Of a DNA stretch of 64,000 nucleotides, positions 1,634-59,600 are shown piece after piece. Both the position numbers and the translations under genes were made by a program. Each line of letters begins with the position of its first letter. Position 1 is the stretch's first letter. The DNA comes from a virus, in the IMG/VR virus record IMGVR_UViG_3300021365_000003, one strand, 5' to 3'. The notes under the pieces are model-generated. The model was given only the letters and a program-made list of their open reading frames with translations, did not search any database and had not been told where the DNA came from.

Positions 1634-2080
1634 TTACTTGGCGACCGTCTCGCCGGAGAGGACCGAAGCGAATGCATCCTCGCTTGAGGTCAGGAAGAAG
1701 AACACCGGAGGCGCTCCTCGCTTGCCCGGTTCGCATTCCATCTTGCGAGCCGAGTCAATGAAGCCGCCAGCCTTGAGCTTGGCGAGGTGCTGTGCAACCG
1801 CATTGCGCTTGATGTTCGCACCACCTTCGAGCAGGACGTTATGAACGTCCGCACACGTTGGACCGTATTGATCCGGGTCGGTTGAGAAGCCGACAAAGCC
1901 CATGAGGACGCTTGCGACAGTCGATTGACGAACGGTGTCCGTCTCACGAGTGCGGCGAGCCTCGGCAGCAAGCGAAGCGGTGAGATCGTAAATCTCCTCA
2001 CGGCGGGATTCGATGCGAATGTCTCGCAGCGTGTATCCGAGTTGAGCCATTGCGATTGCCTTGAAGTTCTGATTAGCCAT
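1634..2080 (-). CDS. winged helix-turn-helix DNA-binding protein
   Basis: VHNVLLEGGANIKRNAVAQHLAKLKAGGFI...KRGAPPVFFFLT is a wHTH-plus-wing pattern; GAGG RBS; downstream of two copies of the repeated promoter. Confidence 0.7.
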   Translation of the reverse strand: MANQNFKAIAMAQLGYTLRDIRIESRREEIYDLTASLAAEARRTRETDTVRQSTVASVLMGFVGFSTDPDQYGPTCADVHNVLLEGGANIKRNAVAQHLAKLKAGGFIDSARKMECEPGKRGAPPVFFFLTSSEDAFASVLSGETVAK

Positions 2081-2124: not shown

Positions 2125-2161
2125 CATTAGTTAGACGATTGAGCGCCGGATCTTATCCACA
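2125..2161 (-). promoter_or_regulatory. bipartite ECF-type promoter, copy 1
   Basis: Minus strand TGTGGATAAGATCC-ggcgctcaat-CGTCTAACTAATG. Confidence 0.8.
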
Positions 2162-2227
2162 TAAAGTGAAATAAAGTTCGATTCGGTTGACTTAGCGTCG
2201 CCGCTTTGTCTTCGCTCTCCCGTCTCT

Positions 2228-2264
2228 CATTAGTTAGACGATCGAAGGCCGGATCTTATCCACA
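2228..2264 (-). promoter_or_regulatory. bipartite ECF-type promoter, copy 2
   Basis: Minus strand TGTGGATAAGATCC-ggccttcgat-CGTCTAACTAATG; shares upstream TTTATTTCACTTTA with copy 1. Confidence 0.8.
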
Positions 2265-2355
2265 TAAAGTGAAATAAAATGATAAAAGATGAAAAACCCA
2301 ATGGTTACGGTAGGTTACAGGAATCGGCCCCCGCCGGGCGCTTTTATTGCTTTTA

Positions 2356-2392
2356 TGTGGATAAGATCCGCCCGTTGTTCGTCTAACTAATG
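2356..2392 (+). promoter_or_regulatory. bipartite ECF-type promoter, copy 3
   Basis: TGTGGATAAGATCC-gcccgttgtt-CGTCTAACTAATG. Confidence 0.8.
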
Positions 2393-2412
2393 AACCCAAC
2401 ATGTGAGGAACT

Positions 2413-2565
2413 ATGGCTACAGAAGACTACACGGGGGCGCTAACGAGCGCCATTCTAGAACTTGCTAAGATAATCGAACTCCTGCTAGCTGAGCGCCAGG
2501 CGCTTGTAGAGAAAATCGAATCCCTAGAGTGGCAAGCGGAACACTACGGCATGCCGCCGCTTTAA
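2413..2565 (+). CDS. small coiled-coil-like early protein (50 aa, MATEDYTGAL...)
   Basis: GAGGAA RBS directly after promoter copy 3; read by hand. Confidence 0.65.
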   Translation: MATEDYTGALTSAILELAKIIELLLAERQALVEKIESLEWQAEHYGMPPL

Positions 2566-2587
2566 ACCCAACACGAGAGGAAAGAAA

Positions 2588-2791
2588 ATGAAAAGAACCA
2601 AACGAACCATTGGATATGAACTCTATCAAGACGGTCAGCTGACTAAAAGCTTTCGAGGCAAGGGCGCTGAACGTCAATTAAAGATGCACATGCGGACGGT
2701 GACCGATTACGATCGGGTCATCCAGAAGGTTCGCCAGAAAGATGGATCGGTCAAGTGGAAATTCTATAAGACAGATCGCAACGTACTTTGA
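2588..2791 (+). CDS. small basic early hypothetical protein
   Basis: Preceded by the conserved leader AACCCAACACGAGAGGAAAG. Confidence 0.75.
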   Translation: MKRTKRTIGYELYQDGQLTKSFRGKGAERQLKMHMRTVTDYDRVIQKVRQKDGSVKWKFYKTDRNVL

Positions 2792-2797
2792 TCTTTA

Positions 2798-2834
2798 TGT
2801 GGATAAGATCCTCGTCTTATTCGTCTAACTAATG
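2798..2834 (+). promoter_or_regulatory. bipartite ECF-type promoter, copy 4
   Basis: TGTGGATAAGATCC-tcgtcttatt-CGTCTAACTAATG. Confidence 0.8.
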
Positions 2835-2855
2835 AACCCAACACAAAGGAAGAAA

Positions 2856-3047
2856 ATGCTACACACTATTCAAGAAGCCGCCCAATGGATCAACAACTGC
2901 GGCCAGCTTAAGCCCGGCTTGGTTGCCGATATCGAAGTGCTCGCCACCGATCAAGGCTTTGCCGAAGACGATGACGGGATCCGATCGGTGGCTTATCCTC
3001 TTTGGCGAGTCGAGGACTTTCAAGAGTTGCTTGGTTTGATTTCGTAA
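2856..3047 (+). CDS. small acidic early hypothetical protein
   Basis: Start moved to ATG 2856 after the AAGGAAG RBS; the ORF-track start at 2832 lies inside the promoter motif. Confidence 0.7.
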   Translation: MLHTIQEAAQWINNCGQLKPGLVADIEVLATDQGFAEDDDGIRSVAYPLWRVEDFQELLGLIS

Positions 3048-3061
3048 TAAATCAAACTTTA

Positions 3062-3098
3062 TGTGGATAAGATCCTCGTCTTATTCGTCTAACTAATG
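3062..3098 (+). promoter_or_regulatory. bipartite ECF-type promoter, copy 5
   Basis: Identical to copy 4. Confidence 0.8.
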
Positions 3099-3119
3099 AA
3101 CCCAACACGAGAGGAAAAA

Positions 3120-3185
3120 ATGATTGACCTACTTTTCGCAAGCTATCTCATTCTTGGCTTTGTCGGCGCCCTCGCAACCCTCTAA
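3120..3185 (+). CDS. 21-aa hydrophobic peptide MIDLLFASYLILGFVGALATL
   Basis: GAGAGGAA RBS in the conserved leader; single TM-like helix. Confidence 0.55.
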   Translation: MIDLLFASYLILGFVGALATL

Positions 3186-3199
3186 TCGGAGTATACTTT

Positions 3200-3442
3200 A
3201 TGAGCTGCACTTTTACTATTAATCGAGACGGAACCGTCCACGCTTGGCATTCACGAGCTAATACTGATATGCCATTCGGGCGGGTTAGTCTTACCGAGTT
3301 GCTTCAGGGCATGCGTGAATGGGAAGGCGGAAAGCTTATTCAGAACGCCATGCCTTTCCTTGACGCCGGCCGTCGGGAATTCATCATGACCGGAATGACT
3401 CCGGCAATGTGGGATGAATTGTTTCCAGAAAATTGTGGATAA
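3200..3442 (+). CDS. phage hypothetical protein
   Basis: GGAG RBS; GxLIQNAMPFLxAxxREFIMTGxTxxxWDELF pattern recalled from phage small proteins. Confidence 0.75.
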   Translation: MSCTFTINRDGTVHAWHSRANTDMPFGRVSLTELLQGMREWEGGKLIQNAMPFLDAGRREFIMTGMTPAMWDELFPENCG

Positions 3443-3470
3443 GATCCGTCGCCCGTACGTCTAACTAATG
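3434..3470 (+). promoter_or_regulatory. bipartite ECF-type promoter, copy 6
   Basis: TGTGGATAAGATCC-gtcgcccgta-CGTCTAACTAATG; overlaps the stop of the upstream ORF. Confidence 0.8.
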
Positions 3471-3488: not shown

Positions 3489-3704
3489 ATGATTTATATT
3501 GTTGGAAATTTTAATGGCGCTTATGGCGCAGAGGGCGCAGTCGATATTGAAGGCGTATACGATTCAAGGGGAGCGGCCGAGCAAGCAATTGCTGAATTCA
3601 ATGAAGATCGAGTTTCAACACTTCGAGCGGCCGGAATCGAGACCGGCTCAATTGATTTCGAAATTCATGAGCTGCCCTTGAACATTTGGATCGGCGGCTT
3701 ATAA
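3489..3704 (+). CDS. small early hypothetical protein (MIYIVGNF...)
   Basis: AGGAGG RBS then ATG 3489. Confidence 0.75.
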   Translation: MIYIVGNFNGAYGAEGAVDIEGVYDSRGAAEQAIAEFNEDRVSTLRAAGIETGSIDFEIHELPLNIWIGGL

Positions 3705-4029: not shown

Positions 4030-4081
4030 TTTTTGAGATTTTAAGACTATTTATAAGGCAAGAAACAATTTAAAAGGAAAA
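4030..4081 (+). repeat. about 52-bp promoter/RBS cassette, repeated at 4565..4616 and partly at 5597..5630
   Basis: AGATTTTAAGACTATTTATAAGGCAAGAAACA(A/T)TTTAAAAGGA in front of MK(I/L)TK genes. Confidence 0.9.
4046..4055 (+). promoter_or_regulatory. putative late promoter ACTATTTATA (core CTATTTA also at 4581, 5597, 8128, 9603, 10428, 11239, 17292, 22007, 44537, 47219, 56608)
   Basis: Recurrent CTATTTA(T) shortly upstream of structural and tagged genes, with no -35 element. Confidence 0.7.
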
Positions 4082-4085
4082 TTAA

Positions 4086-4538
4086 ATGAAAATCACAAAA
4101 CAGCATCTAACACATATCATTAAAGAAGAATTGGAAGCGATCATGCAGGAAGGCCAGTCCTTAAGCGATAAGATCGATAATCTTGTCAAGGATATCAAGG
4201 ACCCCGAAACCGGCGTCGATCTAGAGGAGCCTGACTTAATCAAAACGCCGAAATCGTTTCGGGGTCGGGGCACTCAGGTGTACTCAGGCGGTACCGGCGC
4301 CACCAAAGCTCCAAAAGCTTTTCTAAAATTGGGTTCAGAGAACGACACTAGAGCTGTATACAATTACCTCAAAGAAAGATCAGATAAAATAGAAAAAGGA
4401 ATCGTCGGAAAAAATCCGGACGTGAAAGCAACATTTTACATGCTTGGCAAAAATTTTCTTTTAAGAGACATAGATACAAAGAACTTTAGGGTATACTTTT
4501 CAACGGCCGGAATAATGAATAACGTTAGATATCTCTAG
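4086..4538 (+). CDS. MKITK..IIKEE-tagged protein, putative virion cargo
   Basis: N-terminus MKITKQHLTHIIKEELEAIMQE; late promoter upstream. Confidence 0.8.
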   Translation: MKITKQHLTHIIKEELEAIMQEGQSLSDKIDNLVKDIKDPETGVDLEEPDLIKTPKSFRGRGTQVYSGGTGATKAPKAFLKLGSENDTRAVYNYLKERSDKIEKGIVGKNPDVKATFYMLGKNFLLRDIDTKNFRVYFSTAGIMNNVRYL

Positions 4539-4621
4539 TAGAACAGCCAATCCCCCATAGCATTTTTTTCAGATTTTAAGACTATTTATAAGGCAAGAAA
4601 CATTTTAAAAGGAAAAAAACA

Positions 4622-5017
4622 ATGAAGCTCACAAAAGAATACCTAACACAAATCATTAAAGAAGAGATAGAGAAGACGTATAAACACCCACTAGCCCGAG
4701 GAGTTCAGGTTGTTAAAACCGGCGAGACCGTCCGTCCAGAAGATCCAGATGATCCTCATGATGAAATGGCCGGCTATAAAGATACAACCTACGATATTCT
4801 AGATCAACAAGGAAACAAGATCGGCTTCCTAGAGCACGAAAACTACTTTGGCAACCTTGACGGCGAGTTGTACGATAGGTATCTTCCTAGATTGCAGGGA
4901 TATCGCTCTCACGGATCCGGACCATTAGGAAAATTACAATCTTTTTTCAAGTCTAAAACTGGAAGAAAGTGGCTTGATGTAAGCCAGAGAAGGATGCAAA
5001 AGAAAAAAAGTCAATGA
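4622..5017 (+). CDS. MKLTK..IIKEE-tagged protein, putative virion cargo
   Basis: N-terminus MKLTKEYLTQIIKEEIE; late promoter upstream. Confidence 0.8.
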   Translation: MKLTKEYLTQIIKEEIEKTYKHPLARGVQVVKTGETVRPEDPDDPHDEMAGYKDTTYDILDQQGNKIGFLEHENYFGNLDGELYDRYLPRLQGYRSHGSGPLGKLQSFFKSKTGRKWLDVSQRRMQKKKSQ

Positions 5018-5568
5018 AGCTCACAAAACAGTATCTTAGAACCTTAGTTGAAACGGTTTTGGTCGAAGCTTCAGAGGAACGCATTCCTTCCGAAGGGGGC
5101 ACAACGCAATTATACCACTTTACTCAAGAATCACCCGAGAACGCAAAGGAAAAGATATTGCTTGACCCAAAATTATTCGGAAAAATGGGTTATTCAAAAA
5201 AAGATTTGGCGATTTCGGCGGTTCCTCGCACGTTTTTCTATGTGAATCCAGCAGAGAAAGAAAGTTTTTTTGCTAACAAGGCGCTTTATACAGCAAACGT
5301 TCCCACGGCCGACATTTATAACCTTGCCGATGACCCGGAGGGGGTGAAAGCGGCAGTCCGAAAAGAAAACTATAACATTCTTGACATGGATCAGGTGCTA
5401 AAAAAGGTTTCCGGATGGCAACAAGGCGCTTGGGGCACCGAAAACCAAGGAAAATGGATAAAAAATCCTGGTATGGCCGATGGAATGTACTATGAAACAC
5501 CAAGTTTTGCTGTTGTGGTAATGTTCCGGCCCGTTGAGGCTTTTCTTTCCGACGAACAAACCTCTTAA
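5014..5568 (+). CDS. tagged protein with possible ADP-ribosyltransferase fold
   Basis: Tag MKLTKQYLRTLVETVLVE; LYHFT...FFY...LY...DGMYY...VVMFRP spacing resembles H-Y-type ART domains. Confidence 0.5.
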   Translation: MKLTKQYLRTLVETVLVEASEERIPSEGGTTQLYHFTQESPENAKEKILLDPKLFGKMGYSKKDLAISAVPRTFFYVNPAEKESFFANKALYTANVPTADIYNLADDPEGVKAAVRKENYNILDMDQVLKKVSGWQQGAWGTENQGKWIKNPGMADGMYYETPSFAVVVMFRPVEAFLSDEQTS

Positions 5569-5637
5569 ACATCAAAAAATTTATAAAAAATTCGAAACTA
5601 TTTATAAGGCAAGAAACATTTTAAAGGAGAAACAAAA

Positions 5638-8087: not shown

Positions 8088-8117
8088 AAGCCCCGCTTTT
8101 TCGGCGGGGCTTTTTTT
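8088..8117 (+). terminator. intrinsic terminator
   Basis: AAGCCCCGC-TTTTTCG-GCGGGGC followed by T7. Confidence 0.9.
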
Positions 8118-8168
8118 GTTTTGACTAACTATTTATAACAAAACATAACTTATAAGGAGTTTTTTAAA

Positions 8169-9320
8169 GTGAAAATCAAGAAAACTAGGCTGCTGCAAAT
8201 CATCCAAGAGGAGATTGCACGCATTGATGAAGATAAAGCGGAGAGCATGGAAGCACTTGCTGCCAAAGCCAAGGAAAACCCAAATAGTCCGGCGATGGAA
8301 GAGCTTTTAACCAGACTTTCAAAAAAGCATCGTTTTCTTGCGCTTAAGTTAGCCGGCGGAAACGAAGCTGACGCCGAGGACGCAATGCAAAGCGCCCTTA
8401 TCAAAATCATGACTCAAATTGGTGGGTTCCGAGGAGATTCTGCATTCTCCACTTGGGCCGGCGCCATTATGAAAAATGAATTAATTGACAGTTTCCGAGC
8501 AGGACGCAAAGAGCTTCCTTTTGCCGGTGGCGGCGCAGCTGAAGGCGAGCCGGATATCACAAGTATGTCCGACAAGAGCGAAATCTATCCGTTGGTTCCA
8601 AAAATTAAGAACCCCGAGCAGATTCTTCTTGACAAAGAGCGCAATGAAGCTTTCGATGCTATGGTCCAAGCAATCAAGGATGACAAAATCAACCTCAACG
8701 ATCGGCAAAAAATTGTTACCCTAAATCAGTTTGCGGCCGATCCAAAGTCAGTCGAGGAACTGCGTGTCGAGCTTGGTTACAACACTGTCGGAGAAGTTGG
8801 TCGTGAAATTTCTCGGTCACGTGAAAGAATTGATCGATGGTTGTACTCTCCAGGTGATGAAGGCGTCAAGAAAACTCTTCGAATCGCATTTGCTGGTGGT
8901 GTGAAGCCCGGCGATATCCGAGAAGGCGAAACAGCCGATCGTATGTTTGATGATGCCGAAGCTATCAGAGCAGATGAAAAGCAGTTCTTTGAAGACTTTT
9001 ATAAATGGGCTTATGATAATTATGGCTCAATGGTCGAGGACGGTGAGCTTGACGATGAGCTTTTAGCTGTTTACCGAAAAGTTTTAGCTAAGTCAGAAGA
9101 TCCTGATGCCGACCTTATGGAGCCCGGAATCGACTTGGACTATGAATCACTTCCAAAGGCAGGATCAATGGCTGGTTCATCGACGAATCCGACTCCCCCA
9201 ACAGCAAGACGTCGAGGATCTATGTTTCCTCGACGACCAGATGAAAGATATCGCAAAAATGAAGAACTTTCTTTAGAAGAAACAATTGCTGCAGTCGTAA
9301 AAGAGACTTTGGGTCTATAA
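8169..9320 (+). CDS. ECF (RpoE-like) RNA polymerase sigma factor with N-terminal cargo tag and acidic C-terminal extension
   Basis: Sigma2: DAEDAMQSALIK...FRGDSAFSTW...N..ID.FR; sigma4-like LNDRQKIV...SVEELRVELG..VGEVGREISRSRERI; GTG start with AAGGAG RBS. Confidence 0.88.
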   Translation: MKIKKTRLLQIIQEEIARIDEDKAESMEALAAKAKENPNSPAMEELLTRLSKKHRFLALKLAGGNEADAEDAMQSALIKIMTQIGGFRGDSAFSTWAGAIMKNELIDSFRAGRKELPFAGGGAAEGEPDITSMSDKSEIYPLVPKIKNPEQILLDKERNEAFDAMVQAIKDDKINLNDRQKIVTLNQFAADPKSVEELRVELGYNTVGEVGREISRSRERIDRWLYSPGDEGVKKTLRIAFAGGVKPGDIREGETADRMFDDAEAIRADEKQFFEDFYKWAYDNYGSMVEDGELDDELLAVYRKVLAKSEDPDADLMEPGIDLDYESLPKAGSMAGSSTNPTPPTARRRGSMFPRRPDERYRKNEELSLEETIAAVVKETLGL

Positions 9321-12043: not shown

Positions 12044-12073
12044 TTGACTTTGGGCCTCGTTTCGTGTTATAAT
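12044..12073 (+). promoter_or_regulatory. host sigma70-type promoter
   Basis: TTGACT-N18-TATAAT with extended TG. Confidence 0.7.
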
Positions 12074-12141: not shown

Positions 12142-12171
12142 GTGGATAAGATCCGTCGCTCGTTCGTCTAA
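12142..12171 (+). promoter_or_regulatory. bipartite ECF-type promoter, copy 7
   Basis: GTGGATAAGATCC-gtcgctcgtt-CGTCTAA ending 40 nt upstream of the uvsE start. Confidence 0.8.
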
Positions 12172-12211: not shown

Positions 12212-13141
12212 ATGAATAGCGACTATATCGGTTACGCTTGTATCAACATGGGTTTTAGTGAACGACCTAAGAGTCAACGCATCACTACTAACAGAACAAT
12301 GATTAAAAAAACTTTTGATGCGAAGGGTATCCACTATGCCTCTCAACTAACTCTACTAAATATAACAGACCTACTTGAGATTGTCAAGTGGAATGAGCAA
12401 AACAATGTAAAGTTTTTTCGAATGAGTTCTAATATGTTTCCTTGGGCATCTCATTACAACATTGATGATATGCCGGACATCAAGGAGATCTCTAAGAAGC
12501 TAAAAGAAGTTGGTGACTTTGCTAAAAAGCACAACCATAGACTTACATACCACCCTGGACCTTTCAACAAGTTGGCCTCACCTAAAGAACGTGTAGTCCA
12601 AAACACTATTACTGATTTGGAGATTCACGGCAAGGTTATGGATTTGATGGGCCTCCCAAGAGATCACTGGGCTAAGATCAACATTCACGTTGGTGCTGCT
12701 TATGGAGACAAGCCAAGCGCACTAAAAACGTTTTGTGAGAATGTAAACAAACTTTCTCCAGCAGTTAGATCAAGACTAACGGTGGAAAATGATGACAAGG
12801 TTTCTCTTTACTCAACAAAAGAACTTTACGAAGGAGTTCACGAACAAACTGGGATCCCTATTGTTTTTGATTACCACCATCACAAGCTTTGTACGGGAGG
12901 CCAGTCTGAACAAGATGCGTTAGAACTAGCTTTGTCGACCTGGGGAGATATCACCCCTGTAGTACATTACTCAGAGTCAGCTAGAGAAGAACAGAACAAT
13001 ATTAAGATTAGAGAAGAGAAACACTCTAACTATATATATAATACTATTAATAACTATAATAATAATATACATGTTATGGTAGAAGCTAAGGCTAAAGAAC
13101 TAGCAGTTATTAAATACAAAACGGAGATTATCAATGGTTAA
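12212..13141 (+). CDS. uvsE: UV damage endonuclease
   Basis: GYACIN, FFRMSS, HPG, NIHVG, LTVENDD, VFDYHHH, VHYSES, EAKAKE; start at ATG 12212 after AGGAGG. Confidence 0.95.
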   Translation: MNSDYIGYACINMGFSERPKSQRITTNRTMIKKTFDAKGIHYASQLTLLNITDLLEIVKWNEQNNVKFFRMSSNMFPWASHYNIDDMPDIKEISKKLKEVGDFAKKHNHRLTYHPGPFNKLASPKERVVQNTITDLEIHGKVMDLMGLPRDHWAKINIHVGAAYGDKPSALKTFCENVNKLSPAVRSRLTVENDDKVSLYSTKELYEGVHEQTGIPIVFDYHHHKLCTGGQSEQDALELALSTWGDITPVVHYSESAREEQNNIKIREEKHSNYIYNTINNYNNNIHVMVEAKAKELAVIKYKTEIING

Positions 13142-18467: not shown

Positions 18468-18775
18468 GGGGATGCACTGGCTTCGACTTGGAATAAAAAA
18501 TAAATCGTGCAAAAGCTTGGCTGGACATACGAAAACCAGAAAAAAAATAATTGCCAACAATAACGTTGAATTTGACTCTGTTGCGTTAGCAGCATAATCA
18601 GGGGGCGGCAACTGCCTTTTTATCCAAAGTTGCTTTTTTGTTAATTTGTTTCTATTTAATGTAGATTCCCTCATTGTATGAGGTGGCTTGTTAGTCGGGT
18701 GGTTGACTAACTAATTTTGTGAATGACGATTGATTTTAAGTTTTAAGGACTGGGGTTCGACTCCCCACATCTCCA
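18468..18775 (+). ncRNA. ssrA: tmRNA, tag (A)ANNNVEFDSVALAA
   Basis: GGGGATG/CATCTCC-A acceptor with G3:U, GGCTTCGAC 5' motif, GGGGTTCGACTCCCC T arm; tag ORF 18553..18597 ends ALAA-stop. Confidence 0.95.
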
Positions 18776-18778
18776 CTA

Positions 18779-43525: not shown

Positions 43526-43911
43526 TGATTTATGGTATTATAACAGTTTCGGTATTACTTAATGTAATTCTAACTTGGTATGGCCGCCGCCTTGTAACCG
43601 ACCTTTCAGACCTTTCATTAGAAGTCGAGGAAGTGATTACAGACCTCAACATTTATCATCGCCACGTCGAACAAGTATACCAGCTTGAATCCTTTTATGG
43701 AGATGAAACCTTACGTGCCTTGTTAGAGCACTCAAAGGCCGTCTCAGAGAGAGTTGGAGACTTTACAACCCTGTTTAGCAGGTTAGAGGAAGAAGAGCTT
43801 ACAGATGCCCTAGAGGAGCAAATAGATGACAGTGAAGAAGAGAAGGAAGAGCAAGTATCCAAAGAAAAAAAACATGTATTTTACGCAGGTACACGAGGAC
43901 GCAATCCTTGA
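43522..43911 (+). CDS. membrane-anchored hypothetical protein
   Basis: N-terminal TM segment; coiled-coil/acidic body. Confidence 0.7.
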   Translation: MMIYGIITVSVLLNVILTWYGRRLVTDLSDLSLEVEEVITDLNIYHRHVEQVYQLESFYGDETLRALLEHSKAVSERVGDFTTLFSRLEEEELTDALEEQIDDSEEEKEEQVSKEKKHVFYAGTRGRNP

Positions 43912-44530
43912 ATACTGTAAATCAGAATCAAAAGCTAGAAGAGAAGAGCTATACGGCACACTAATCCAACCTGCTTTTGACGAGTTAGTTGATAAGATTG
44001 TTTATACCTATAAGTTTAACTCACTTCCAAATTGCGATATTCTAAAAGAAGATTGTAAAGTCTTTTTGGTTACAATCTTAGAAAAGTTTGATGTTGAAAA
44101 GGGTTATAAAGCCTTTACTTACTTTTCAGTGATCACAAAGAACTGGTTTATTGCCGAGACCAAGAAAAGAAAAAAGAAGCTTCAAAAAGAAGTTGCCTTG
44201 GATGTTTCTGATACAATGATGGATGAAAAGCTTATCGTTCGAAACACTTACATCCAAGATCGCACAAAAGCAGAGTTCATTGAGGTGCTCCACGAAGAAA
44301 TAGTATGGTGGAAGGAAGAAACATCCAGCGCTCAAGATAGAAAAATCTTAGAAGCAGTCGAAGTTTTATTTGAGTCAGTAGAGCAGATTGACATTTTTAA
44401 CAAAAAAGCTGTGTATGTTTACCTGCGGGAGATTACCGGCTTTAGCACAAAGCAAATAACTTCTTCTCTAACAAAAGTAAGAAAAAAATATCGAAATCTA
44501 AGAGCCGAGTGGGACAACGGAGAAATCTAA
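43826..44530 (+). CDS. phage late sigma factor (gp55-like)
   Basis: YFT...KFDVEKGYKAFTYFSVITKN region-2 pattern; positioned just before structural genes. Confidence 0.7.
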   Translation: MTVKKRRKSKYPKKKNMYFTQVHEDAILEYCKSESKARREELYGTLIQPAFDELVDKIVYTYKFNSLPNCDILKEDCKVFLVTILEKFDVEKGYKAFTYFSVITKNWFIAETKKRKKKLQKEVALDVSDTMMDEKLIVRNTYIQDRTKAEFIEVLHEEIVWWKEETSSAQDRKILEAVEVLFESVEQIDIFNKKAVYVYLREITGFSTKQITSSLTKVRKKYRNLRAEWDNGEI

Positions 44531-56658: not shown

Positions 56659-59600
56659 TGACAATAAAAAAGTATTTTGAAAACAATTCTTTTTCGAATA
56701 ACTCATTAACCGACCTAGAAAACAAGGAAGGGATAGACTTTGAGTCGTTTGAGTATCTTGATGAGTTAGAAAAGCAAAGAACAAGGTTTATCCCCAACGT
56801 TGACTTTTCTAAGCCGGAAAACTTTGCTTTTTACGGTCTTGCTGAACAGTATTATAAAGATGCTACGTCAAGAGTTATCAACAACTATCCTTATGATGGT
56901 TCTAAAAAAGAGTTGACCGAATGGTATAATGACTCAACCTACTTTGACTTATATGTCTTTGAGAATGAATACCCCAGGTCTAATGGCTATGGTATCTTCG
57001 CCGCAAATGGTTGGGGTACAAAAGTATCAGTATCGCCCGACAATTATCGTTTAGATGAAAGCTTAGAATACATCTCTATCAAGGGCGGCCCAAACGCAGG
57101 CCCTGGCAACACATACGCCGGCGGCAACATTTATGACCCGTCTAAACAAAGAAACTCAAATTTAGCGCTAAACCTAGACACAAAAGGTGCCACGGTTGAG
57201 TTCTGGCTCAAAAAAAGTATTGTCGATCACCAAATCCGAGAGGTTGTCTTTGATCTCTGGAACAACGAGGTAAGCGGCACATCTGGTGTAGCCAATGAAA
57301 ACTATGGCCGGTTTAGAATCGAAATAAACACCTCAAGCGCCGGCAGTTTCGCTTCTCATAAGGCCTTCAGAGCCATTGTGCACTCTGGATCCAACAGGCA
57401 AGAGGTCTTACTAGGGGACTATACAACTACTGATTCTTTTGACAACCAAGGGTGGACCCACTTTGCTTTTGCGACATCAAAAAGCACCATAAAGCTTTAT
57501 AAAAACGGCGAATTAGACTCCTCTGCGGCCTATGGAACAGACTTTGGGAATGTTTCTGGTACACTAAACGCTTTTGTTGGCGCACTTATAACAAACCCTT
57601 CTGGCTCTACCGCAACAACCGGCTCTGGCAAGCTTTCAGGTTCAATTGACGAGTTTAGATACTGGAAAACTACTAGAACTGAGCGAGACATAGAAAGAAA
57701 CTGGTATACAAACGTCTATGGTGGCACTAATACAGACGACGCAAACACAGATCTTGGTGTTTACTTTAAGTTTAACGAAGGAATAACGGGAGATGCCACA
57801 ACGGATGCAACTGTCCTAGACTATTCAGGACGTATCTCTAATGGCACTTGGATCGGCTATACCTCCAACTCACGCAACATAGGCTCAGCGATTGTTTCAG
57901 CCTCTGCCGCCGAGAAAGAGTTTAAAGATCCAATCCTAAGAACCACAAACGCTCTTTATACCACTTATTATAATGATTCCCTAGAGAAAGGAAAGCGCCA
58001 CGATCTAAATAACTCATCAAACATTTACTATTCATTCCCTGATTGGATTATCGATGAAGACTTAGAAAGTGGAGAGAAGCTGCTCCAACTAGCACAAGCA
58101 GCCGCAAGTTATTTTGACACGGCCCAACTACAAGTTCAGTCTCTTAGAGAGCTAAAGGACATAGAATACTCTTCACAAACTGACGCACTAGACGATAAGC
58201 CAAATCCTTTTGCGGAACGCCTCTTGACCGAAAGAGGAATGATAGCACCCGACTTCTTTGTCGAGAGAACAGTATTAGAAGATCTTTCTCAAAAGACAGC
58301 AGGAGATGCTTTAGAATCAGATCTGTTCGATCTAAAGAACCTTATTTATCAAAACATTTATAACAACTTAGCGGATCTAGTAAAGCAGAAAGGCACAAGA
58401 GAAGCAATACGAAACGTTCTCCACACTATGGGAGTCGGTGAAGAGCTAGTTTCTGCCAAGACCTACATAACCAGTGAGAAACTAGTATTAGAAGACGAAA
58501 AATCTTACAGCAATCAAAGTATAAGGTTTATTGACTTTTCCAAGAAAAACTTTAGAGATGCCGTTGTTTACCAAACCGGCTCAACCTCAAACGAACTAGG
58601 ATACATAAGTTCTTCATCAGATAAAAATGCATTATGTGTAGAATCTTTTGTTCGATTCCCAAAAATAGATGAAAATACAGACACTGATCTTATACCAAAC
58701 TTTTTAGTTTCTTCTCTTTTTGGTTTTCACGACATTGATGAAACGTCAGCGCCATACAACACTTGGGAGTCCACATCAGCTGCCAGTGCTTTCGTAAGAA
58801 CGGTTAAAAATAACTTTCTTGCCGAAAAAGTATACTTTGAGCTAAGCTCTTCTGTAGTGGGTGTCACCGCTCTGACATCTTCTAATTTCTACAATGTATA
58901 CAACAACAGCGACTGGTACTTCTCGGTCCAGTTGGAGCCGCAAAACATTTTATTTCCTTCCTCGTCAGTTCCTGATTATGACCTAGTCTTTAGCGGATAC
59001 TCTTATATAGGAAACAACCTAAATGAGTCTTTTGTTGTTTCTTCATCAGTAAGTCGAGCAACAGCACTTTCATTCCTACAGACCAACCAAAAGGCCTACA
59101 TAGGCGCAGAGCGAACAAACTTTACTGCTGGAACGGTAAATAGCTCAGACGTTAAAAATGCTGGTTTGAGATTTTGGCTTAGAAACCTAACAGCCGACGA
59201 ACAAAAAAGCCATGCCCAAGACTTCCTAAACTATGGGTCTTCGACAAGGTTAAACAATTCCTATTCTTTAACTAGTTCCGTAAGACAAGGAGATCTAGCG
59301 CCAACTGACTATCTTGCTCTTAATTGGCAGTTTGACAAAATCACCACAACAGATGCGTCCGGATTGATTGAGGTGCTAGACTCAACCTCTGGTTCGGCCG
59401 AGAGAAGATCAAGAGGAACGTTCGTCAATAAAATAGCCGGGTATCACCATCCAGCCACATCATACGAGTTTCCGGTATCATCGACAGATGTTGTTCAGAC
59501 CTTATTTATTGACTCTTACTCACCTGTAGAGTTTGATGGCTACAACTCTGACAATTTGATTCAGATCAAGACAACAGAAGATGAAAAATACGGCCTAAAC

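Follow-up and report, generated by a model that had tools for sequence, protein, structure and literature searches.

The 64,000-nucleotide stretch of virus record IMGVR_UViG_3300021365_000003 analysed here (the window) carries repeated copies of a 30-bp two-block element, GTGGATAAGATCC-N10-CGTCTAA, hereafter class A, and the question raised by this locus is what the element does and which protein reads it. We propose that class A is an extracytoplasmic function (ECF)-type promoter that would be read by an ECF sigma factor of the phage, encoded at 8169-9320, together with the host core RNA polymerase (RNAP), and that would drive the pre-replicative half of the genome, a reading to which we give a probability of about 0.6 from the sequence comparisons presented below. 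As to the type of the element, class A is almost certainly a phage-specific ECF-type promoter.

A pattern search of the window tolerating up to three mismatches returned seven class A matches, all with 0 mismatches. No match was obtained in 100 dinucleotide-preserving shuffles of the window, nor in a control scan with the reversed pattern. An earlier sequence-only reading had claimed seven copies with two invariant blocks and a spacer of fixed length; all seven were found exact where it placed them, and their spacer is constant in length (10 nt) and varies in sequence. The scan of the whole genome that this reading had called for was performed on the 168,882-bp myovirus record (IMG/VR; rated 93% complete) that contains the window. 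It gave 19 exact copies, the seven of the window being only its share, and no variant with one to three mismatches in either block over the whole 168,882 bp. The window and the whole-genome sequence differ at 239 of 64,000 positions, with differences listed in about the first 30 bases, near 20.9-21.3 kb and at 58150, and no class A copy contains any of those listed.

In the orientation of the window, nearly all genes of the genome point one way. Head, sheath and tape-measure genes occupy 0-24 kb, and baseplate, fibre, terminase and portal genes 125-169 kb, while 24-93 kb holds a ribonucleotide reductase, a DnaE-type polymerase, a PurA/PurZ-like enzyme, GroEL, tRNAs and many small open reading frames (ORFs). 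All 19 class A copies lie within 24.5-92.5 kb, a 68-kb pre-replicative block making up 40% of the genome (0.40^19, about 3e-8), and 0 of the 19 falls in the head, tail or baseplate modules. Sixteen of the 19 are on the gene strand, and the three reverse copies face a reverse ORF, the next copy and a short hairpin-ended stretch, respectively. About half of the copies directly follow a GC hairpin with a T run. Since tRNA-Thr starts 17 nt past one class A -10 and tRNA-Lys 75 nt past another, class A serves RNA genes as well as ORFs, and every copy faces a gene, an RNA gene or the next copy. This placement is the one expected of promoters starting transcription units, not of translation signals, terminators or mobile repeats. 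The leftward copy at genome position 78749 (minus strand; contig L011, about 1.66 kb left of the window start) is without the leading GT. About 35 nt beyond it come a GC hairpin and a T run, no ORF being present, and it may drive a short non-coding transcript.

Within the window, two minus-strand and four plus-strand copies diverge from a 94-bp gap. The leftward copies, at 2131-2160 (proximal) and 2234-2263 (distal), form a tandem pair for a single ORF, 1634-2080 (minus), whose start at 2080 lies 50 nt downstream of the proximal copy. On the plus strand, the copy at 2357-2386 follows a terminator-like hairpin (2324-2337) and precedes ORF 2413-2565, and that at 2799-2828 is upstream of ORF 2856-3047. 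The next one, at 3063-3092, precedes the 21-codon ORF 3120-3185 and then ORF 3200-3442, and the copy at 3435-3464 overlaps the 3' end of the latter and precedes ORF 3489-3704. The seventh copy, at 12142-12171 (plus), is 40 nt upstream of the start of UvdE (12212-13141). The claim that every copy points toward a ribosome-binding site (RBS) and an ORF held for six of the seven, in which sequence reading and a start-codon scan placed an RBS and a start codon 24-50 nt past the element; it failed for 2234-2263, which faces the copy at 2131-2160, 103 bp away. The ORF downstream of the tandem pair gave a sub-threshold match to HTH_20 (E = 0.03), and its product may be a regulator at the divergent control region. 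The 21-codon plus-strand ORF encodes a strongly hydrophobic peptide (MIDLLFASYLILGFVGALATL) and has its own RBS.

Both blocks are kept in close IMG/VR relatives, in which the flanks drift. In a more distant ENA contig (L035), whose sigma factor is 44% identical, 12-13 copies of GAATAAGATCC-N10-CGTCTAA show the same divergent layout. A metagenome scan with the motif core gave 43 contigs with at least two copies and a total of 119 unique class A copies, from which the conserved core across related contigs reads G-N-ATAAGATCC-N10-CGTCTAA-N5-GA. The base before ATAAG is G, A or C, at times mixed within single contigs, the three bases further upstream are variable among related copies, and the GA 5 nt past the -10 is present throughout the metagenome copies. 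In 434 kb of family DNA the spacer measured 10 nt in 220 of 222 cases, 11 nt in two and any other length in none, the family loci having been picked with the N10 pattern, so that the first copy of each locus is biased and the remaining copies were free to vary. ATAAGATCC occurred within the class A motif in 222 of its 229 occurrences and in isolation in seven. Class A is specific to this phage group. Viral-contig matches to its 16-base core in L040-L046 were set aside as single unrelated chance matches, no cultured relative was found, a phage collection matching only the tRNAs and DnaE at about 30% identity, and a literature search with the motif string gave unrelated primers only, without a description as a promoter.

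These relatives also bear on two functions other than transcription by a dedicated sigma factor, both of which we regard as very improbable. In the first, class A would be a set of DnaA-binding or Dam-controlled sites serving replication control, DnaA titration or DnaA-gated promoters: TGTGGATAA complements the DnaA box TTATCCACA and GATC comes after it, the 9-mer box is perfect in 16 of the 19 genome copies, and GATC, present in the -35 block, also abuts the -10 in 11 copies. Across the related contigs, however, TGTGG is found in just 27 of the 119 unique copies, and the GA lineages have CCTGA, CCCGA, TTTGA or CACGA at the position of the box. The conserved core sits on the right-hand side of the DnaA box, and neither a fixed CGTCTAA partner nor a gene-directed orientation has a role in DnaA binding. 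A DnaA-box cluster with a conserved 9-mer (TTATNCACA) was thus rejected, the box being confined to one lineage. In the second, the left block, GGAT-AAG-ATCC, would serve a dimeric repressor as a palindromic operator, or a hairpin of spacer and leader would form as in N4-type promoters. GGAT/ATCC is indeed a 4+4 inverted repeat and a few copies show 6-9 bp of spacer-leader complementarity, but the palindrome is broken in the GA lineages (GAAT...ATCC) with no compensating change, for which the operator was rejected. The spacer-leader hairpin (N4-like or cruciform), complementary by eye in several copies, was rejected as a general feature, the pairing over 42 copies averaging -9.28 kcal/mol with the own leader against -9.13 kcal/mol with the other leaders (permutation p = 0.33).

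The geometry of class A is that of an ECF promoter. The sequence-only reading had parsed the element as GGATAAG, 16 nt and TCTAA and likened it to RpoE/AlgU promoters; the parse is arithmetically correct and is found in 19 of 19 genome copies, inside the 15-19 nt (about 16) of the two-block type. The spacing matches the published model of E. coli sigmaE, in which GGAACTT and TCAAA, with 16 nt strongly preferred between them, are accompanied by a 5/6-nt discriminator, a purine start and A/T-rich upstream tracts (PMC1312014). Class A agrees with this model in its spacing, its GTC-containing -10, its GA at +6/+7 and its A/T tracts, and the GA 5 nt past TCTAA is kept in both the GG and the GA lineages. 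The description of a conserved -10 and a novel -35 was fair: the -10, CGTCTAA, has the GTC/CGTC core and is present in all copies and lineages, an invariance whose apparent extent is limited by the fixing of CGTCTAA in the search patterns, and the -35 is without the AAC core. Compared with the promoters of E. coli RpoE and Pseudomonas AlgU (GGAACTT-N16-TCAAA/TCTGA; PMC1312014), class A likewise has two blocks 16 nt apart, a discriminator of 5-6 nt preceding a purine, an A/T-rich upstream tract and near-consensus copies only. In contrast, its -35 is GGATAAG or GAATAAG, its conserved block is longer, and its spacing in this genome is constant where RpoE tolerates 15-19 nt. A T4-type middle promoter (MotA box plus sigma70 -10) was rejected, no conserved TAnnnT being found in any register downstream of the block.

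A candidate reader is encoded in the same genome. The plus-strand gene at 8169-9320 specifies a 383-aa ECF sigma factor with both sigma2 and sigma4, the only Sigma70_r2 match in the genome (9e-11). It comprises a tag (residues 1-21), sigma2 (about 27-112), a linker, sigma4 (about 149-241), a tail and a conserved C-terminal helix; the AlphaFold 2 model shows sigma2, a disordered linker, sigma4 and a largely disordered tail of 140 residues. Among solved structures, AlgU and RpoE are its best relatives, the alignment covering sigma2 and sigma4. No second ECF sigma was found among 210 ORFs with a hidden Markov model of the sigma core, and no close bacterial source of that core among shorter proteins. 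A phage RNAP was rejected as the reader of class A, Pfam searches having revealed no phage RNAP domain in the seven largest proteins without an assigned family. Every contig with a sigma of the 8169-9320 family and enough upstream DNA also has class A. We consider it rather probable that the phage ECF sigma reads class A. The earlier suggestion that the promoter mirrors a conserved sigma2 and a divergent sigma4 fits the protein of this genome, in which the FRGDSAF loop is identical to that of RpoE/AlgU and the sigma4 recognition helix differs; it does not extend to sister phages, which have the same promoters and cores 19-26% identical.

The comparison of the sigma homologues shows that they share a near-invariant N-terminus of 21 residues and C-terminus of 16 residues around cores of distinct types. 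Relative to the 8169-9320 protein, core identity is 45% for type I', 25-26% for type IIa and 19% for type IIb, for tags that are 95-100% identical. In three contigs (L034, L037, L038), the DNA flanking the sigma gene on either side is 90-97% identical to the window and the core is replaced, and the alignment of window 8233-9093 with L034, L037, L038 and L039 delimits the core as an exchangeable cassette of at least four types between the N-terminal tag and the C-terminal tail. Contigs with type IIb cores (L037, L085, L095) have 5-7 exact class A copies each, and those with type I' cores (L112, L035) the GA form. Because near-isogenic phages with the same promoters carry different cores, the promoter does not track the sigma sequence. 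The idea that sigma residue 172 covaries with position 2 of the -35 (R for G, S for A) was dropped, since single contigs mix GG, GA and GC copies. Either very different cores would share one specificity, or the sigma is not the reader. The natural chimera P0003, whose sigma2 is 90% identical to type I and sigma4 80% identical to type IIa, would favour a shared specificity, and it argues that the core types are interchangeable.

The control of the sigma gene involves a second promoter class. An intrinsic terminator with a 10-bp stem and a T run (8088-8112, plus) insulates the gene from upstream transcription, and it is followed by a late-type core, ACTATTTAT (8128-8136, plus), located 41 nt before the sigma start codon and belonging to a class hereafter called class B. 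The order terminator, class B, sigma is kept in L031, L033, L034, L047 and L048, and an operon form is found in L035. Since a class B promoter behind a terminator precedes its gene, the ECF sigma looks like a late product. Class B heads the protease-scaffold-capsid, sheath, tube and baseplate genes, and 6 of the 8 positions of its core TATTTATA agree with the late promoter of T4, TATAAATA. The gene strand has 26 occurrences of ACTATTTA, of which 20 are no more than 70 nt from a start, and the opposite strand has one. In the window, ACTATTTAT(A) is found at 4046, 4581, 5597, 8128, 10428, 22007, 44537, 47219 and 56608, and it also heads a cluster of tagged proteins: the plus-strand cores at 4046, 4581 and 5597 (4046-5605) each head a gene starting with the tag MK[IL]TK..L..[IV]IKEE.

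A sigma-like protein related to gp55 is encoded at 43826-44530 (plus). This highly conserved protein of 234 aa has a weak match to the gp55 family (phrog_234), is the best phmmer match of T4 gp55 in this proteome, and has 6254 homologues (E <= 1e-5), many above 50% identity. Its Foldseek matches are almost all sigma factors, with a weak RpoS sigma2 signal and a C-terminal helical domain. It probably serves as the late sigma in a very large group of marine phages, and we regard it as the probable reader for class B and, to a minor degree, as a rival reader for class A.

Several observations weigh against the assignment of class A to the phage ECF sigma: (i) the -35 block, G[G/A/C]ATAAGATCC, lacks the AAC core (GGAAC) and matches GGAACTT at 3 of 7 positions; (ii) the conservation of this block extends over 10-11 bp, a longer stretch than a sigma4 helix normally reads; (iii) in no lineage seen does a class A copy precede the sigma gene, whereas most ECF sigma genes have a promoter of their own class, as expected under autoregulation, and, unlike with RpoE/AlgU, the gene has neither a promoter of its class in front nor an anti-sigma neighbour; (iv) the sister phages with the same promoters have other loops and other sigma4 helices; (v) the sigma gene is insulated behind a late-type promoter in five lineages, which leaves the early supply of the sigma unexplained unless it is packaged; and (vi) a second sigma-like protein, that of 234 aa, is present. 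In a rival reading, class A would be a promoter with another reader, namely a host ECF sigma, the 234-aa protein, or a MotA-like activator on the ATAAGATCC block with a sigma on CGTCTAA only, the tagged sigma then being cargo for another target, e.g., host genes. The invariance of the promoter while the core is swapped in near-isogenic phages, the length of the conserved block, and the conservation, numerous homologues and sigma-like fold of the 234-aa protein with its helical C-terminal domain are in agreement with such a reader. In contrast, CGTCTAA is an ECF-type -10, a gp55-family protein better fits the AT-rich single-block class B, and host RpoE would not read an element sharing so few -35 positions with its own. 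Class A and the tagged sigma moreover co-occur on every informative contig, and the chimera points to one specificity. We hold another reader to be unlikely.

Under the preferred reading, that of an ECF-type promoter read by the phage sigma, the parts of class A would be used as follows. The upstream A/T tract would act as an UP-element-like part, the -35 region would lie inside G-N-ATAAGATCC, the fixed gap putting GGATAAG 16 nt from TCTAA, and CGTCTAA would be the -10, with the GTC core typical of ECF sigmas. Transcription would start at the conserved GA, 5-6 nt past the -10. The host core RNAP with the ECF sigma of 8169-9320, or with the allelic cores in the sister phages, would then transcribe small takeover-type ORFs, tRNAs, nucleotide-metabolism and replication genes, and UvdE. 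Class A would work beside host sigma70-type promoters and be distinct from the late-type ACTATTTAT class heading structural genes. Its timing would depend on the sigma, class A being either served by a virion-borne sigma (immediate-early) or switched on later.

The sigma70-type promoters bear directly on this timing. One of them (TTGACT-18-TG-TATAAT, 12044-12073, plus) stands in tandem upstream of the class A copy at UvdE. This sigma70-type site upstream of UvdE is kept in the distant relatives L033, L034, L035 and L047, and in L033, L035 and L047 class A is absent at UvdE and the sigma70-type site is there. Strong TTGAC(A/T)-17-TGnTATAAT sites number 28 on the gene strand and 3 on the other; the intergenic ones lie mostly at 24-100 kb, and three adjoin a class A copy in tandem. 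GC-TTGAC(A/T)-N17-TGnTATAAT sites are also found at genome positions 24583, 31525, 36996, 43030, 53130, 59827 and 99586 (window orientation), and several sigma70-type sites are followed by GC-rich hairpins instead of an RBS. Early transcription does not need class A, because sigma70-type promoters in the same block can be used by the host RNAP. The sequence-only reading had called class A a phage-specific immediate-early promoter class: its promoter-like behaviour, its ECF/RpoE-like geometry and its restriction to the phage group stand, whereas immediate-early timing is not established, given these sigma70-type promoters and the position of the sigma gene behind a terminator and a late-type promoter.

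Class A could be immediate-early only if the sigma arrives in the virion, which is possible and is suggested by the tag of the sigma, similar to the capsid-targeting tags of T4. This tag, MK[ITL]xK..L..IIxEE, is common to the sigma and five otherwise unrelated proteins (six in all), one of which is encoded by a 75-aa ORF that occupies the gp67/gp68 position of the head module. That the tag contains synonymous changes points to selection on the peptide instead of the DNA. All six tagged proteins have I-[KQ]-E at residues 12-14, and in the sigma I-Q-E is found close to the N end, and L-E-E and V-K-E close to the C end. The prohead protease is a Peptidase_S77 of the gp21 type (3e-28), and the genome thus holds a shared short N-terminal tag, L/I-x-E sites and a gp21-type protease, the features expected of T4-type capsid-targeted cargo. 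In T4, cargo enters the prohead by means of a capsid-targeting sequence of about 10 residues, gp21 cleaves behind L/I-x-E, and both ends of Alt are trimmed (PMC9026906). In a more doubtful variant of the preferred reading, with the same promoter and the same sigma, the sigma would be made late as a tagged precursor, loaded through its N-terminal tag, trimmed by the gp21-type protease and injected, and class A would fire at time zero. Virion delivery is supported by the conserved order of terminator, class B and sigma, by the association of class B with head, sheath and baseplate genes and its likeness to the T4 late promoter, which fit a late-made sigma, and by a tag found on six otherwise unrelated proteins. 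The tag is also conserved far beyond the cores (95-100% against 19-45%), and the protease and the L/I-x-E-type sites in the sigma fit the T4 cargo rules (PMC9026906). Against it, the sigma70-type promoters can start infection without an injected sigma, and a shared tag could serve recombination or another function. That class A copies are the true first promoters of infection, served by an injected, prohead-matured sigma whose at least four exchangeable core types and chimera would all read one frozen promoter, is advanced only tentatively.

The proposed programme resembles and departs from known phage systems. In T4, sigma70 is used for early, MotA/AsiA for middle and gp55 for late genes, the last at TATAAATA (PMC2988021), and IPI-III and Alt are capsid cargo (PMC9026906). 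As in T4 (PMC2988021, PMC9026906), three promoter classes are seen here, pre-replicative genes are preceded by host-type and phage-type promoters in tandem, the late motif is a single AT-rich block, a gp55-like protein and a protease of the gp21 type are encoded, and a variable set of proteins carries a short N-terminal tag. Unlike T4, the second class here would use a separate ECF sigma instead of a remodelled sigma70, no MotA/AsiA was seen here, and T4 is not described as carrying a sigma factor as capsid cargo. Among tested systems, phage 7-11 comes closest; its gp47 reads GTAAtg-16-aCTA at late genes (PMC8948821). In this phage and in phiEco32, whose gp36 uses tAATGTAtA (PMC8948821, PMC4281155), a phage ECF-like sigma redirects the host core RNAP to a phage motif, as is proposed here, and the 7-11 promoters are, like class A, bipartite with a 16-nt gap, their starts lying 6-9 nt downstream (PMC8948821). 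In contrast, the 7-11 promoters head late genes and the phiEco32 ones middle as well as late genes, with the sigma a middle gene, whereas class A heads pre-replicative genes and its candidate sigma lies behind a late-type promoter. The promoters show no sequence likeness, and there are 19 copies here against 6-8 there.

Among the other genes, a tmRNA is found in the window at 18468-18778 (plus; Rfam, 104 bits) with the tag peptide ANNNVEFDSVALAA, and the window tRNAs are Arg-tct, Met-cat and Asn-gtt. Outside the window, a 554-aa protein (L013:3453-5117, minus) matches the adenylosuccinate-synthetase-like (PurZ/PurA) family phrog_1211 (3e-69), which may raise the case of a 2-aminoadenine genome, and a 1034-aa protein (L009:7984-11088, minus) has a Mre11-like phosphoesterase fused to a Rad50/SMC-like ATPase head.

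Sigma factors encoded by phages and paired with promoters of their own are known; the few that have been tested drive middle or late genes. Class A marks the pre-replicative half of the genome in a group of marine myoviruses that is abundant and uncultured, and its strict form, with more than 200 copies, one spacer length and almost no lone half-sites, makes a transcription map readable from sequence alone. The exchange of sigma cores while the promoters stay fixed amounts to a natural experiment on ECF specificity, and the mismatch of early-type targets with a late-made tagged sigma allows the possible injection of a sigma factor by a phage to be tested concretely.

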